Origin: Candidatus Limnocylindria bacterium
GTDB lineage: Bacteria; Chloroflexota; Limnocylindria; QHBO01
Assembly: GCA_038233215.1 (NCBI GenBank)
Contig: JBBSML010000012.1
Coordinates: 1,751 to 65,750 of the forward strand
Direction of reading: 5' to 3'
Length of the DNA: 64,000 bases
Made by a program: the position numbers and the translations under genes. The notes under the pieces were generated by a model. That model did not search any database and was not told the origin of the DNA. It saw only the letters and a list, made by a program, of their open reading frames with translations. Shown piece after piece: positions 52,036 through 62,499 of the stretch (the stretch's first letter is position 1; every line of letters begins with the position of its first letter).

Positions 52036-52216
52036 TTGCATCAGGTGCACGTAACGACGAAGAAGGGACCTGATCGGCCCACATTTGGGCCATGGTTTGC
52101 ACGTCACGCACATCCAGGACCGTCTGGGGCCGAATCGAGCCACAACGTGGTCGTTACGTGCACCCAGCGCAAAACCGAGCCACAACGTGGTCGTTACATG
52201 CGCCCAGCGCAAAACC
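52036..52216. repeat. inverted-repeat element family T, copy A: GGTGCACGTAACGAC (52044-52058) and its reverse complement (52150-52164) about 90 bp apart; the second arm is tandemly duplicated as a 40-bp unit (52137-52176, 52177-52216; 2 mismatches)
   Basis: Seen directly; lies upstream of the XRE regulator gene. Confidence 0.6.
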
Positions 52217-52244
52217 GCGGCCCAGAAGGAACAGAAGACCCGGG

Positions 52245-53306
52245 TTAGCCGGGGGAGACCACCCTGGCTCCATGGGCGCGCCGGACTTTTTGGCTGAAGG
52301 CGTAGAGGATGCCGCCCAGGATGATGACCGTCACGATCGTCAGGCCCCGGTCCACGAGGGCGACCGCGGCGGCAGGTTCCTCGGGAACGCCGTACAGGAA
52401 TAGGACGCCGATGATGCCGGCCTCCACGAAGCCGAAGCCCGCGGGCGTCAAGGGAATGGCAGTCAGGAGGGCGGCCGCAAGGGCCACGAAGACCGATGCG
52501 CTGATTCCGAGACCCACCTCCGGCAGGTCCAGCGCACGGATGACGAAGTACAGGCGCGCGCCCTCCAGCACCCAGATGCCGACGGTCAGCGCCAGGACGA
52601 CCGGGGCGCTGCGGGCCGACAACGCCCCGGTGCTGCCTTCCTGGAATCGAATCCACAGTTCGCCGATGCGAGCCGGCAGCCAGCGCCCGATGCGCGCGCC
52701 GTACAGTCGCAGCCCGGCCAGCATCAGGATGAGCGTGATGGCCAGCACGAAGCCGATGACAAAGAGTGTGTCGATCTCCGGGCGAGATCGACCCCGGAAG
52801 GACCAGAAGCCGGCGGTCAGTGCCAGTACGGCGATGACGATGATATCGGCGATCCGCTCGATGAAGACCGTCCCCACCGTCCGGGAGATGGAGGCGGCGT
52901 AGTTCGCACGCAGCAGGTACGCCCGATACAGGTCGCCCAGCTTGGCCGGCACCAGGCAGTTGACGAACCACGAGAGGAACAGGATCTCGGTCGCGTCGCG
53001 GAAGCGGACCGGCATGGCGCTGCGCCCCAGGACGTAGCGCCATCGGAAGCCGCGCAGCGGGAAGGTCGCGTAGTACGCAAGGAACGCGAGGCCCAGGAAT
53101 CCGACGTCCGCCTGTCCGACCAGGCGCCACACGAGGCCCCAGTTGAAGTCGTCGCCAAAAATGACGCGCGAGAGGAAGTAGAGGAGGAGAAGGCCGAACA
53201 CCAGCGAGCCGATCGTCCGCACGTTCAAGATTCGGCTGCGGAGCGAAACCTGGTCGGCCGTGAACTCGTCGGCGTTGCGCTCCGAATCTGCTATCGGCTC
53301 ACCCAT
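52245..53306 (-). CDS. lysylphosphatidylglycerol-synthase-TM-region-like (UPF0104/flippase-like) membrane protein
   Basis: 8 TM helices; LSWFVNCLVPAKLGDLYRAYLL; start MGEPIADSE. Confidence 0.6.
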   Translation of the reverse strand: MGEPIADSERNADEFTADQVSLRSRILNVRTIGSLVFGLLLLYFLSRVIFGDDFNWGLVWRLVGQADVGFLGLAFLAYYATFPLRGFRWRYVLGRSAMPVRFRDATEILFLSWFVNCLVPAKLGDLYRAYLLRANYAASISRTVGTVFIERIADIIVIAVLALTAGFWSFRGRSRPEIDTLFVIGFVLAITLILMLAGLRLYGARIGRWLPARIGELWIRFQEGSTGALSARSAPVVLALTVGIWVLEGARLYFVIRALDLPEVGLGISASVFVALAAALLTAIPLTPAGFGFVEAGIIGVLFLYGVPEEPAAAVALVDRGLTIVTVIILGGILYAFSQKVRRAHGARVVSPG

Positions 53307-54183
53307 CCGTATCGGGCTCTTTGGAGGGCAGGTCGGCGCTGGTCGGGCGCTTGACGGGCTCCTGACGCACGACCTCCGGCTCCTGCGGACCCAGGATCGG
53401 GCCGGTAGCGGTGCGCTTGCCGCGCCATCCGTCGAACGAGTTCTTCCAGACTGCCCAGCGCGTGGTGGCGTGAATGAGGACAGTGGACCGACTGGCATGC
53501 CAGTCGTTATCGGGCAGCAGGATCTTCAGCTGCTCGGCGGTTTCGAACGCGGGGAGGGCGTTGAAGGCCATCGCCACCTCGAAGCGCGAATGGGAGTCGG
53601 AGGCCGCGATACCGGGAATCCCGTAGCGGTGCGCGAATTCGGCTGCCTCGAGGTTGTGGCGCTGGAGCGCGACGCGACAGTTGAAGACCTCGATCATGTC
53701 GATCTTGCCGGTGTCCGCGAGGTTGCGCAGCGGACCGTCCCGGATGTGCGAGCCGCGGAATGGATCGAACGGGTGCGGGATGCTGACGAGGCCACCTTGC
53801 CGATGGATCTCATCCGCGGTCTCCTTGGCGCTGAGACCGCGCGGGATGGTCCTGGTCAGGAAGATGCCGACCACCTCTCCGTCCGCGGTCGAGACCTCCT
53901 CGCCCAGGATGACGGTGAGCTCGTCCTCCAGGCCCAGCTCGCGCACCTTGTCGCGTACCGCAATCGCCCCTTCCACGTTGTTGTGATTCGTGACCGCGAC
54001 GTGCGTCAGGCCGCGTTCGATCGCGGTCCTGATGAACCTCTCCTCGGGCAGGATCGAGTCACGACTGAACCGGGTGTGAATGTGGAAATCCACGAAGACC
54101 CGGTCCATCCGCGGCTTGCCCGTTCCTTCCCGCTGCTGCATGAGCGAGGCGCGAAGGTCGCCCGCGGATGCAGCGATGGTCAC
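53299..54183 (-). CDS. PHP-domain metal-dependent phosphoesterase
   Basis: FVDFHIHTRFSRDS...HVAVTNHNN...SIPHPFD. Confidence 0.65.
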   Translation of the reverse strand: MTIAASAGDLRASLMQQREGTGKPRMDRVFVDFHIHTRFSRDSILPEERFIRTAIERGLTHVAVTNHNNVEGAIAVRDKVRELGLEDELTVILGEEVSTADGEVVGIFLTRTIPRGLSAKETADEIHRQGGLVSIPHPFDPFRGSHIRDGPLRNLADTGKIDMIEVFNCRVALQRHNLEAAEFAHRYGIPGIAASDSHSRFEVAMAFNALPAFETAEQLKILLPDNDWHASRSTVLIHATTRWAVWKNSFDGWRGKRTATGPILGPQEPEVVRQEPVKRPTSADLPSKEPDTDG

Positions 54184-54190
54184 GGGTGAC

Positions 54191-59955: not shown

Positions 59956-59958
59956 CGG

Positions 59959-61371
59959 TCAGCCCATCTTCTCTGCGTTGGCGACCACGTCCTCGATCTT
60001 GCCGGCCATGAAGAACGCCTGCTCCGGGAGCTGATCGTACTTGCCCGCGAGGATCTCGCCGAAGCCGCGAACCGTCTCCTTGAGCTCGACGTATGCGCCG
60101 GAACGCCCGGTGAACTGCTCGGCCACGAAGAACGGCTGGCTCATGAAGCGCTGCAGGCGGCGGGCGCGGGAGACGGACACCTTGTCCTCCTCCGAGAGCT
60201 CGTCCATGCCCCGGATGGCGATGATGTCCTGGAGGTCCTTGTAGCGCTGCAGCGTTCGCTGCACCTCACGAGCGACTTCGAAATGCTCGTCACCGACAAT
60301 GCGCCGATCAAGCACGGTCGAGGTCGAGGTCAGCGGATCGACGGCCGGGTAGATGCCGAGCTCCACGATGGAGCGCTCGAGGCGGATCGTCGAGTCCAGG
60401 TGGGCGAAGGTCGTCGCGGGCGCCGGATCGGTGTAGTCGTCCGCGGGAACGAAGATGGCCTGGAGCGAGGTGATCGAACCATTCTTGGTCGAGGTGATGC
60501 GCTCCTGGAGGTCGCCCATCTCGGTCGCCAGGGTCGGCTGGTAGCCGACGGCGGAGGGCATGCGGCCCAACAGCGCGGAGACTTCCGACCCTGCCTGCGT
60601 GAAACGAAAGATGTTGTCGATGAAGAGGAGGATGTCGCGTCCCTCCTCGTCGCGGAAGTACTCGGCCATGGCCAGCGCGGTCAGGCCGACGCGCTGGCGC
60701 GCGCCGGGCGGCTCGTTCATCTGGCCGAAGACCATGACGGTCTTGTCGATGACGCCCGACTCGGTCATCTCGCCGAGCAGGTCGTTCCCCTCGCGCGATC
60801 GCTCGCCGACGCCGGCGAAGACCGAGTAGCCTCCGTGCTCTGCCGCGATGTTTCGGATCAGTTCCTGGATGATGACCGTCTTGCCGGTGCCGGCGCCGCC
60901 GAAGACCCCGACCTTGCCGCCGCGCCGGAACGGAGCGATGAGGTCGATGACCTTGATGCCGGTCTCGAAGACCTGCGCCTCGGTCTCCATCTGATCGAAG
61001 GCGGGAGGCTCGCGGTGGATGGGCAGGTACTTCTCCGCCTTGACCTCGCCCTTGCCGTCGATGGGGTGGCCGAGCACGTCGAACACGCGGCCCAGCGTGG
61101 CCTCGCCGACCGGCACCGTGATGGCCGCGCCGGTGTCGACCGCGTCGAGCCCGCGTGACAGGCCATCGGTGGTGGACATGGCCACGGCACGCACCCAGTT
61201 GTTGCCCAGGTGCTGCTGCACCTCGACCACCAGCGTCTCATCGGCGCCTGTTGAATCTGCCTTCTTGGGACGCTGGATCTCCAGCGCGTTGTAGATATCG
61301 GGCAGCTCCCCGGGCGGGAACTCGACGTCGATCACGGGGCCCGTGATCTGGATCACCTTACCGGTCGCCAT
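59959..61371 (-). CDS. atpD: F1 ATP synthase beta subunit
   Basis: [15 protein letters not shown] (Walker A), DELSEED-type loop MDELSEEDK. Confidence 0.95.
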
Positions 61372-61393
61372 CGGTCTGTTCTTCTCCTTACGC

Positions 61394-62284
61394 CTACCCG
61401 AGCGCTTCCGCGCCGGAGGCGATCTCGATCATTTCGCGGGTGATGGTCGCCTGACGCGTCTTGTTGTAGACAAGCGTCAGGTCACCGATGAGCTCGTTTG
61501 CGTTCTCGGTGGAATTGCGCATGGCGATCATGCGCGCGCTCTGTTCCGAGGCGTTGTTCTCGAGCACGGCTCGATAGATGTTGATGGCCACGTAATGCGG
61601 CAACAGCCGCCGTAGGACGGCTTCGGGTGACGGCTCGAACAGGTACTCGTCGTTCGTGCGCTCGTGCTCGTCGGCCATTTCGGGCCGGACGACCGGCAGA
61701 ATCGTATCGATCTCCGGCTTCTGCGCGAGGGTCGACACGAACGTGCTGTAGGCGATGTCGATCTCGTCGAACTTCTCCGCAAGGAAGTCCTCGGTCACCA
61801 GCCGGGCGATGGGCGTCACGTCCGCGAAGGACGGCCGGTCGCCGAGCTGAGCGAAGTGCGCGGCGATCGGCACGCCGGACCTGCGCAGCGCGTCACGACC
61901 CTTGCGACCGACGGTGATGGCCTCGATCTCGACCGGCGCGTCGCCATTCGTCGTGGATGCCCGTCGCGCCACCCAGCGAAGGACTGATCGCGTGGCGTTC
62001 GCGTTCAGGGAACCCGCGAGGCCACGGTCGGTGGTGATGACGATGATCGCGACGCGCCGAATGGGCCGGACCGCCAGCAGTGGGTCGATCTCCTCCGTCA
62101 GCCCCGCGGCTCCGGCAACGCGGCTCAGCGCGCCCTCCAGCTCATCCGCGTAGGGCCGCGCGGCAAGAATGGCATCCTGCGCCCGCTTCATGCGCGAGGC
62201 AGCCACCATCTCCATCGCCCGTGTGATCTGGGCGATGTTGCGGACGGATCCGATGCGCCCACGGATGTCCTTCAGGCTCGGCAT
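61394..62284 (-). CDS. atpG: F1 ATP synthase gamma subunit
   Basis: [36 protein letters not shown]. Confidence 0.9.
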
Positions 62285-62499
62285 CGGCTACGCGCCCGCC
62301 GCTCGGCCGGCTTGCACCGGGTGCACCAATTGGAGGAGCAGGGAGCCATGGGCACCCCATTCGAGGCGTGTTCTTGCATCGGGCGTGTGGGGGCGTGCGT
62401 GGAGGATCATCGGCTATTCCCAGGCCCCATGACGGTGTGCCAGGTCGCCGAATATATACGTATATACTTCGCGATCGACGGAGGGATTCGGAGGCGACA

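Follow-up and report, generated by a model that had tools for sequence, protein, structure and literature searches.

Within one lineage of soil Chloroflexota, a previously undescribed inverted-repeat element of ~140 bp, family T, is inserted between housekeeping genes. It is a low-copy intergenic repeat, of a general type that includes REP dimers/BIMEs, ERIC elements and MITEs, and its host group is the Limnocylindria-type Chloroflexota. What sets it apart is that its three identical dyads are strictly spaced in steps of 10.5 bp, a rule maintained despite independent changes in length. No described repeat family for Limnocylindria-type Chloroflexota, a large uncultured soil lineage to which family T contributes one, was found in Rfam, in plasmid and phage collections or in the literature searched. 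More than 20 copies were collected from metagenome-assembled genomes (MAGs) of this group and from metagenomes; the alignment comprises 17 copies, and additional ones turned up afterwards.

Architecture of the element and its copies in the window

A full copy consists of two arms placed head-to-head and a third 15-bp palindrome near the middle. Each arm is composed of a 15-bp palindrome (box), a GT(A/C)G(A/T)TAC tag and sAAG, in the order kTGCrC-N3-GyGCAm, GTAwCkAC, sAAG. The box is best written as a 6-3-6 palindrome, kTGCrC-N3-GyGCAm, with a 6-bp stem and a 3-nt loop, and not in the 6-1-6 form of the initial annotation. The tetranucleotide of the tag (GTAG, GTCG, GCAG or TCAG) has a fixed position, 4 nt ((A/T)TAC) from the palindrome; in all full copies the tags point inward, with ~85–95 bp between them. 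The arms form terminal inverted repeats of ~27–30 nt, over which left and right arms are 80–87% complementary. In sets of orthologous copies, 8.9% of the columns are variable in the arms and centre box, as opposed to 20% in the interiors (Fisher p = 2e-5), and at orthologous sites the arms are 2–3 times better conserved than the interiors.

The window, that is, the whole 64-kb stretch of DNA analyzed, holds three full copies (L0, L1 and L2) and one decayed copy (L3); comparison loci carry three-digit labels. All four copies lie within 13 kb, and nhmmer found none in the first 49 kb of the window. L0 is flanked by divergent genes, a comFC-like gene (48544..49191, minus strand) and hpf (49532..50110, plus strand); its ortholog is found at L039:6008-6164, and sister loci do not have it. 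L1, which spans 52036–52212 with its duplicated arm, starts 32 nt (duplicated arm counted) past the stop codon of an LPG-synthase-like gene (52245), and its core lies 133 nt upstream of the likely start of the XRE gene (51903). The arm duplicate is specific to the window and absent from the orthologous copy in L039, and L1 as a whole is missing from comparison loci L045–L053. L2 follows the atpC stop codon (59545) by 53 nt and precedes the TGA-split ORF, which starts at 59267, by 87 nt; it is missing from L045, L057, L059 and L062. In L3 the right arm is unrecognisable, and the copy adjoins an AT-rich palindrome (62450–62468). A global alignment of L3 with L1 gives z = 5.1, and L3 can also be aligned with the full but diverged copy that L058 carries at this site, whose box spacings are 62+51 bp.

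Table 1. Family T copies in the window and their palindromic boxes.
Feature	Position	Strand	Sequence	Remarks
L0, full copy	49320..49456	.		nhmmer E=4.7e-9; overlooked by the initial annotation
L0 left end box	49320-49334		TTGGCT-GGG-GCGCAA	
L0 centre box	49371-49385		TTGCCG-CAC-GTGCAA	L0 box spacings 51+71 bp
L0 right end box	49442-49456		TTGCGC-TGG-GCGCAA	
L1 core	52036..52172	.		orthologs L030, L033, L039
L1 left arm	box 52036-52050		TTGCAT-CAG-GTGCAC-GTAACGAC-GAAG	
L1 centre box	52097-52111		TTGCAC-GTC-ACGCAC	
L1 right arm	box 52158-52172		...GTCGTTAC-GTGCAC-CCA-GCGCAA	L1 box spacings 61+61 bp
Tandem duplicate of L1 right arm	52173..52212	.	ATGCGC-CCA-GCGCAA	40 bp; box 52198-52212
L2, full copy	59355..59491	.		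orthologs L034, L041, L044, L054, L058
L2 left box	59355-59369		TTGCGC-CGG-GTGCAC	
L2 centre box	59426-59440		TTGCAC-TAC-GCGCAC	L2 box spacings 71+51 bp
L2 right box	59477-59491		GTGCAC-CCG-GTGCAA	
L3, decayed copy	62312..62449	.		right boundary approximate; in the 215-bp atpA-atpG spacer
L3 left box	62312-62326		TTGCAC-CGG-GTGCAC	perfect
L3 centre box	62374-62388		TTGCAT-CGG-GCGTGT	62 bp from left box

Filled and empty sites in related genomes

Eleven syntenic loci of relatives (L045–L049, L051–L053, L059, L062 and L063) contain no family T copy within ±7–10 kb, and their gene order is identical. The atpA-atpG spacer is the most detailed case. In sister lineages it measures 3 nt. L054 and L055, whose AtpG is 100% identical, have 85 nt and no element; in L058 (AtpG 96%) the spacer includes the diverged full copy and reaches 191 nt, and in the window it is 215 nt. 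The copy is thus present or absent among genomes with 96–100% identical AtpG. As such comparisons show, with sites filled in one clade and the syntenic sites of relatives empty, family T copies are insertions, and they lie shortly past stop codons. Their number appears to be low, a handful per genome, with one exact two-arm match per GTDB representative MAG.

The initial annotation had suggested a small hairpin-forming mobile element as one explanation. This suggestion holds to the extent that family T is an inserted inverted repeat, polymorphic for presence and absence. As in MITEs, terminal inverted repeats as well as filled and empty sites in related genomes are found. No direct repeat flanks any copy; near L3 there is a 9-bp repeat, TAGCCGATG, but homology with L058 places it within the element. 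The DNA examined (window and comparison loci) contains no transposase gene and no parental IS with family T arms; the sole nearby IS256-family element, in L054, has ends unrelated to these arms. No RAYT gene was found among the ORFs covered by a Pfam scan or by precomputed Pfam hits, which include part of the window ORFs and those of the comparison loci. Integron attC sites were also considered and rejected: the arms CACGTAAC and GTTACGTG violate both cores, R'' RYYYAAC and R' GTTRRRY, and the copies flank housekeeping operons, not cassettes.

Palindromes in helical register

Within family T copies, palindrome-to-palindrome spacings take only the values 50/51, 60–62, 71/72 and 83 bp. The period that best fits these spacings in a circular-statistics test is 10.45–10.65 bp (R = 0.88–0.96), and none of 20,000 random spacing sets fits equally well. 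In an independent subfamily, all three boxes are 6-4-6 and are spaced by 72+62 bp, with the register kept. The three palindromes are fixed in their rotational register, with 10.5 bp as the spacing quantum. Being whole DNA turns apart, they resemble a platform on which a DNA-binding protein could dock, rather than ancestral control sites of the nearby XRE regulator, and the quantised dyads are a clean signature of protein-DNA architecture on a small dispersed element.

We favor, with moderate confidence, the interpretation that family T is a low-copy insertional element resembling REP dimers and MITEs, whose phased palindromes would be the sites at which a dimeric protein binds duplex DNA. The binder would be sequence-specific and might be a host architectural protein or else the recombinase or transposase responsible for the element's spread, and it would assemble a compact bent or looped complex over ~120–135 bp. 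Co-transcribed arms would additionally pair into a long RNA hairpin (−64 to −72 kcal/mol), with a possible effect on mRNA stability within and after the atp operon. Should the binding protein be found, the element could explain differences in atp-operon organization and expression between very close relatives.

Several observations count against this interpretation. No target-site duplication is seen at any copy, the DNA examined has no transposase, RAYT gene or parental IS with these arms, and copy number looks low. In at least two lineages the copies are concentrated around the atp operon (glyA-atpI, atpA-atpG and after atpC), a clustering that random insertion would not predict, and the conservation of the arms in situ is unexpected for a dead selfish element. 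The last two observations speak for an unlikely alternative, a portable looping-operator cassette with a mainly cis-regulatory role. Here a putative dimeric factor would bind the three phased dyads and close a loop of ~122–133 bp that controls or insulates the atp, hpf and efp operons, the copies having spread by duplication. The quantised spacing, the subfamily in which all three boxes have changed together from N3 to N4, the low copy number and the location of one copy in a divergent promoter region are also consistent with such a cassette. However, close relatives run the same genes element-free, two family T loci sit between convergent genes, the copies lie at variable distances (~75–360 nt) from the conserved atp promoter motif, and promoter-like hexamers were not found in or adjoining the copies. 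Nor did a candidate factor emerge: the window-specific HTH_31 gene (55451..56209) is absent from L039, which has elements. A further and rather doubtful idea is that family T is a transposable 'looping platform', a mobile cassette whose three phased operators recruit one dimeric protein into a ~120-bp wrapped or looped complex. If so, neighboring housekeeping operons (ATP synthase, hpf and efp) would gain an additional level of control or be topologically insulated, and the concerted N3-to-N4 box change would reflect co-evolution with the binding protein.

A possible function at the level of RNA

The copies lie 11–53 nt past the stop codon of the upstream gene at seven loci and also occur inside the atp operon; given this location, they are probably co-transcribed. 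They could accordingly be thought of as structured RNAs, either a small RNA or a 3'-UTR or intercistronic hairpin involved in mRNA stabilization, RNase III processing or termination. Predicted folds are strong (−64 to −72 kcal/mol, z = −3.2 to −5.9), and REP, ERIC and Correia elements act at the RNA level (PMC3733652 and general knowledge). We nevertheless consider this reading improbable. In the RNAalifold consensus, conservation is limited to the terminal stem; the covariation term is −0.24 kcal/mol, the interior has no conserved structure, and left and right arms differ without compensation (GTAACGAC versus GTAGATAC). The strand of the element relative to the flanking genes is not constant, the window copies being antisense and those in L022 and L023 sense. 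The 10.5-bp quantum also counts against an RNA-level function, as it is a property of B-DNA and not of an RNA fold. No U-tract terminator was found at family T copies, and there was no Rfam match. With a terminal stem only, varying orientation and no Rfam counterpart, family T was not assigned to a structured non-coding RNA class.

The neighboring XRE gene

The initial proposal was that the palindromes, lying upstream of three minus-strand genes, serve a dimeric regulator as operators, with the XRE protein as the candidate. The part of the proposal that concerns a dimeric DNA-binding protein is supported by the 10.5-bp register of the dyads and the better conservation of the arms; the assignment to XRE is not supported. 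An XRE dimer that binds TGCACC-N-GGTGCA to control its own gene, the TGA-split gene and atpG would be in keeping with the symmetry and helical register of the boxes, the copy upstream of the XRE start and the HTH_3 domain of the protein. Yet the helix-turn-helix is invariant in relatives, wherever the locus encodes XRE, although these lack boxes and elements in the 10 kb around the syntenic XRE, hpf and atp genes. No boxes occur in eight syntenic XRE-bearing loci of relatives, and the site is not conserved along with the regulator. The conserved region upstream of XRE (GGTACCTTCCTCCTATTGAGG...GGATGCTGCGGTTGCTCGTATGCACC) lies outside the element and is common to lineages with and without it. 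In other genomes, copies are found after efp, after glyA and between convergent genes; copies keep a short, fixed distance to the stop codon upstream of them, not to the promoter or start of the gene downstream. On these grounds, the location upstream of three minus-strand genes is incidental, the comparative data largely refute control by XRE, which we judge very improbable, and the XRE gene is a bystander. An apparent 'regulon motif' beside a regulator gene can thus be an inserted repeat.

Significance of the repeats

The repeats on which these readings are built were confirmed at every coordinate initially given, and they are far beyond chance. The 15-bp arm sequence GGTGCACGTAACGAC is present exactly at 52044–52058 (+), 52150–52164 (−) and 59363–59377 (+), and with two mismatches at 52190–52204 (−) and 59469–59483 (−); in 64 kb, the expected number of exact matches is about 1.5e-4. 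The palindrome TGCACCNGGTGCA is perfect at 59478–59490 and 62313–62325 and has one mismatch at 52037–52049 and 59356–59368, with about 0.007 perfect sites expected. The 40-bp tandem duplication of the distal arm (52133–52172 and 52173–52212) is likewise real, its units being 93% identical, and the related interior sequence noted between the arms is the third copy of the palindrome, i.e. the centre boxes of L1 and L2. The description was incomplete in that it lacked L0, the whole of the decayed L3 around the arm at 62312–62326, and the 6-3-6 form. Short patterns with up to 2–3 mismatches are only marginally above shuffled controls, so significance rests on exact matches and whole-element alignment. 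That marginal enrichment could point to chance similarity or an artefact of low-complexity GC-rich palindromes, an explanation with practically no chance of being right and already refuted by exact 15-mers and perfect palindromes at 10^2–10^4 times expectation and by whole-element nhmmer E-values of 1e-9 to 1e-40 on independent contigs.

Comparison with known repeats and protein-DNA assemblies

A REP unit is an imperfect palindrome of about 20–40 nt, capable of forming a stem-loop, with a GTAG (or CGTC) tag directly at one end. REP and REPIN sequences occur in tens to hundreds of copies per genome, and the RAYT (Y1 transposase) gene is flanked by the same units. Like the REP dimers, REPINs and BIMEs of Proteobacteria, family T consists of short palindromic units placed head-to-head as inverted doublets with a 20–100-bp spacer, and has a GTAG-like tetranucleotide (GT[A/C]G) on the inner side of the unit. 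It also resembles them in being extragenic, mostly just past stop codons or between convergent genes, in its local duplications and clusters, and in its variable presence among relatives. Family T is also predicted to bind protein at its middle, as BIME-1/RIP does at its central IHF site. Unlike REP dimers, family T has a palindrome of only 6-3-6, shorter than the typical REP unit, a tag 4 nt off the palindrome, a third copy of the same palindrome as its middle site, spacings quantised by the helical repeat and apparently a handful of copies per genome. REP stems of 5–13 bp have been reported (PMC3733652); the definitions of REP, REPIN and BIME used here are from the same source and from general knowledge.

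ERIC and Correia elements resemble family T as imperfect palindromes of ~100–155 bp, with terminal inverted repeats of ~26 nt, that are found at transcribed intergenic sites and whose orthologous sites are filled or empty depending on the lineage. ERIC (IRU) elements are enterobacterial and Correia elements (CREE) are from Neisseria; the latter contain an IHF site at their centre and are able to fold into hairpins sensitive to RNase III. Family T differs from both in having no TA or other target duplication and no outward promoter-like hexamers, in its unrelated sequence and different phylum, and in its three identical dyads in register. Its copy number appears much lower than that of Correia elements.

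Two further systems are comparable only in how they work. In the gal repressosome, OE and OI are 113 bp apart with HU at the apex, and looping is strictly dependent on helical phase; family T similarly has dyads ~11–13 helical turns apart with a predicted protein site between them. Operators of the gal type are fixed in one promoter region and conserved with their regulator, whereas family T is dispersed, inserted and missing from relatives that keep the candidate regulator. The res site of Tn3/γδ contains three subsites for resolvase dimers in ~120 bp, with a defined synaptic architecture, and family T also has three dyad-symmetric sites in ~120 bp. The res subsites differ from family T in their unequal spacer lengths and in having no terminal inverted-repeat arrangement, and res adjoins its resolvase gene, while no recombinase gene lies near any family T copy.

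Several copies are rearranged. L022 contains a tandem pair of elements, arm duplications are present in L1 and in L023 and L035, and the element in L054 has a 20-bp internal triplication; this is the structural instability typical of palindromic repeats.

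Family T copies share three palindromic boxes

All coordinates listed in the initial annotation for the repeats of family T, an inverted-repeat element of about 140 bp, were borne out by sequence search of the window. The 15-mer GGTGCACGTAACGAC occurs exactly at 52044 (+), 52150 (-) and 59363 (+) and with two mismatches at 52190 (-) and 59469 (-), while two perfect matches to the palindrome TGCACCNGGTGCA lie at 59478 and 62313 and two single-mismatch ones at 52037 and 59356; a 40-bp tandem unit (52133-52212) duplicates the distal arm. Because about 1.5e-4 exact 15-mers and 0.007 palindromes are expected in 64 kb, these repeats are not due to chance.

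A two-arm pattern derived from the aligned window loci, GGTGCACGTA-N86-116-TACGTGCACC, was searched against public DNA and matched two Chloroflexota MAG contigs and 21 metagenome stretches (handles such as L039 denote stretches of DNA outside the window), about 10 of the latter being true relatives. About 10 of the 21 were rejected as long palindromes or chance matches (L024, L027-L029, L031, L032, L042 and L043) or as tandem arrays (L025, L036 and L040); the arrays are long and mix GGTGCACGTA with TATATACGG units. An HMM built from the true relatives revealed a third full window copy, L0, and a second copy in L039.

The element is about 137–150 bp long. Each end consists of a 15-bp box, kTGCrC-N3-GyGCAm, with GTA(A/T)C(G/T)AC and then (G/C)AAG on its inner side, so that the inner part of the arm, read outward, is GT(A/C)G-(A/T)TAC-palindrome; the interior holds a third copy of the box. 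The variant TTGCGC-N3-GCGCAA in L0 identifies the box as a true dyad rather than a direct repeat. A decayed copy, L3, keeps one intact arm at 62312-62326; its centre box is at 62374, and it aligns to L1 with z=5.1.

Family T copies and genes of the window. Gene names are from Pfam, except PHP and fpg, named from synteny with sister loci.
Feature	Position	Strand	Basis or remark
comFC-like	48544..49191	-	Pfam
L0	49320-49456		full copy
hpf	49532..50110	+	Pfam
AP endonuclease	50133..51248	+	Pfam
CGCGTTCGGTCATCTGCCGTGATGGTGGGCAATAGCCG, reverse-complement-like	51432-51466		second repeat family
XRE	51478..51903/51930	-	Pfam
L1	52036-52212		full copy
LPG-synthase-like	52245..53498	-	Pfam
PHP	after LPG-synthase-like	-	synteny
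mreB	54191..55186	-	Pfam
CGCGTTCGGTCATCTGCCGTGATGGTGGGCAATAGCCG	55322-55359, 57172-57209, 57313-57350		second repeat family
HTH_31 gene, window-specific	55451..56209	-	Pfam
fpg	between HTH_31 gene and murA	+	synteny
murA	57372..58649	-	Pfam
AGTATATACGTATATA(T/C)	58690-58708, 62450-62468		AT-rich palindrome
TGA-split ORF	58728..59267	-	ORF interrupted by an in-frame TGA
L2	59355-59491		full copy
atpC, atpD, atpG	59545..62284	-	Pfam
L3	62312-~62449		decayed copy
atpA	from 62500	-	Pfam

The copies are inserted close behind genes

Family T is variably present at orthologous sites. L054 and L055 encode an AtpG identical to that of the window and have an atpA-atpG spacer of only 85 bp that contains no copy; at the same place as L3, L058 (AtpG 96% identical) has a complete but diverged one. 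The interval between glyA and the atp operon holds a copy in L023/L035, L054 and L060/61, a decayed one in L057 and none in L059 and L062/63. Copies start 11–53 nt past the stop codon of the upstream gene, which may be glyA, efp, atpC, the LPG-synthase-like gene or a DAO-type oxidoreductase gene (named by reading its translation), with ybeY on the other side. Two loci lie between convergent genes and one between divergent genes, and the distance to a conserved atp promoter-like motif (…TATACTC…GTCGAAC) ranges from about 75 to about 360 nt.

Across five orthologous or paralogous sets, 8.9% of columns are variable in the arms and centre box vs 20% in the interiors (Fisher p=2e-5); the arms have therefore been maintained after insertion.

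The initial annotation had also suggested a small hairpin-forming mobile element, which is supported in the sense of an inserted inverted repeat of variable presence. No target duplication was seen at any copy, and no mobilising enzyme was found in the DNA examined. The 9-bp repeat TAGCCGATG around part of L3 was rejected as a target duplication, as comparison with the L058 copy places its left repeat inside the element. A 15-mer scan of viral contigs gave 21 single matches, all in low-GC coding DNA without the extended arm, and BLAST of L1 and L2 against plasmid and phage collections gave zero matches.

The L1 site, which separates the LPG-synthase-like gene from XRE, is occupied in L057 by an unrelated insert of about 190 bp (within L057:19505-19808); the insert has an inverted repeat of its own, CTGTCAGA…TCTGACAG, that includes ATTACGTGCCACC. 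This suggests that the site is an insertion hot spot.

Box spacing is helically quantised

Start-to-start distances between neighbouring boxes (in bp) are 61+61 in L1 and L037, 71+51 in both L2 and L0, 50+71 in L023/L035, 71+61 in L026, 83+50 in L022, 62+51 in the atpA-atpG copy of L058, 72+62 in L060 (a subfamily with all three boxes 6-4-6) and 91+84 in the L054 copy, which is enlarged by internal tandem repeats. The centre box shifts by about 10 bp while the total length stays near 122 or 132–134 bp. In a circular-statistics test with the period free between 9.5 and 11.5 bp, R was 0.88–0.96 at a best period of 10.45–10.65 bp, and 0 of 20,000 random sets were as good. Since the offset is constant at about -0.2 turn per step, "fixed register" is a safer description than "same face". 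Such phasing is characteristic of duplex B-DNA and indicative of a protein complex sensitive to how the three dyads are set rotationally.

Family T among known repeat elements

On the best-supported reading, family T belongs with inverted-repeat elements of the REP-dimer/BIME, ERIC or MITE kind, being inserted and apparently low in copy number, and its three dyads form a putative platform where a dimeric protein would bind duplex DNA. Such a protein would bind the three dyads and loop or wrap the DNA; co-transcribed copies might have RNA-hairpin side effects. Like known kinds, among them REPs as defined in PMC3733652, family T has a head-to-head doublet and a GTAG-like tag and is extragenic, 3'-proximal and variably present, but its palindrome is very short, with a 4-nt gap to the tag, and it has a third identical dyad and phased spacing.

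That family T is instead a regulatory cassette we consider rather improbable; this reading is kept alive by the concentration of copies around the atp operon, the occurrence of four copies in 13 kb and the apparently low copy number, all of which fit a simple selfish element poorly. Within 49000-62600, a scan found no sigma-70-type promoter and only weak terminator-like signals unrelated to the arms.

Single copies fold strongly (-64 to -72 kcal/mol), but an RNA family is argued against by several results: RNAalifold recovered the terminal stem alone (covariation term -0.24 kcal/mol), differences between left and right arms are uncompensated, orientation relative to flanking transcription varies, and Rfam gave nothing for the whole window at gathering level or for L1 at E<=10.

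The proposal in the initial annotation that the boxes are operators of the XRE protein is not supported, and they do not look like ancestral XRE operators. Close homologues of the protein number in the thousands and carry the annotation Candidatus Limnocylindria or Chloroflexi; family and structure searches gave nothing specific beyond HTH_3, and its helix-turn-helix is invariant across the relatives examined. Eight relatives' contigs (L045-L049, L051-L053) keep an XRE 83–86% identical and the same gene order from atpA to comFC, as far as the loci extend, yet their syntenic 16–20-kb loci contain neither element nor box. Intergenic gaps are short in these loci (atpA-atpG, 3 nt; LPG-synthase-XRE, about 122 nt; atpC-next gene, 22–131 nt). 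The sequence block conserved across all lineages in front of XRE falls outside the element.

The HTH_31 gene was rejected as the cognate binder because L039 has elements but lacks that insertion, and an IS256-family transposase as the parent because its ends are unrelated to family T. Restriction avoidance is not supported by the frequency of GTGCAC (observed 11 vs a Markov expectation of 11.07), and a base-by-base check showed no fit to attC. Resemblances to dif/Xer, parS, CIRCE and matS presumably fail on motif or spacing.

Neighbouring repeats and genes

The IS256-family element (L054:15201-16588; Pfam Transposase_mut; 28-nt ends GGTCAAGTCCCAGGACGTGGTGTAACAG) is flanked by murA and fpg; the window lacks it. 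Members of the CGCGTTCGGTCATCTGCCGTGATGGTGGGCAATAGCCG family sit in 3' intergenic regions and also occur at L054:14950-15107; because they form an inverted pair about 100 bp apart in L054, they may represent another small inverted-repeat element.

The palindrome AGTATATACGTATATA(T/C), AT-rich in a genome of 65% GC, also occurs at L041:3216, L052:4453 and L054:~9945 and in L055. Upstream of murA, its conservation extends across the window, L041 and sister locus L052; the atpA-atpG spacer holds a second copy, which stands alone in the 85-bp spacer of L054/L055 and, in the window, is joined to L3 through a common ATACGT. The palindrome has the appearance of a genuine regulator-binding operator. 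Sister lineages have a different AT-rich palindrome, TTATATC-N6-GATATAA, downstream of atpC (L047:3968, L049:3967, L052:3778), with a second L052 site (6674) between fpg and mreB.

The segment of about 1 kb at 55249-56221, between mreB and fpg, carries the HTH_31 gene, which has a weak NCBIfam match (HipB/Y4mF-antitoxin-like); as L039 (a close relative), L047 and L053 all lack the segment, it represents an insertion specific to this strain. At the site of the TGA-split ORF, two adjacent small genes (75–83 aa and 108 aa, without Pfam matches) are called in the sister loci L045-L049, L052, L059, L062 and L063, so the split or stop is conserved and not a sequencing error. In sister lineages AtpA ends in a Lys/Ala-rich C-terminal tail, which is replaced in the window (62500-62540 vs L045:1240-1290), where the insertion at the atpA-atpG junction makes a new stop codon and the TAGCCGATG junction before atpG is kept.
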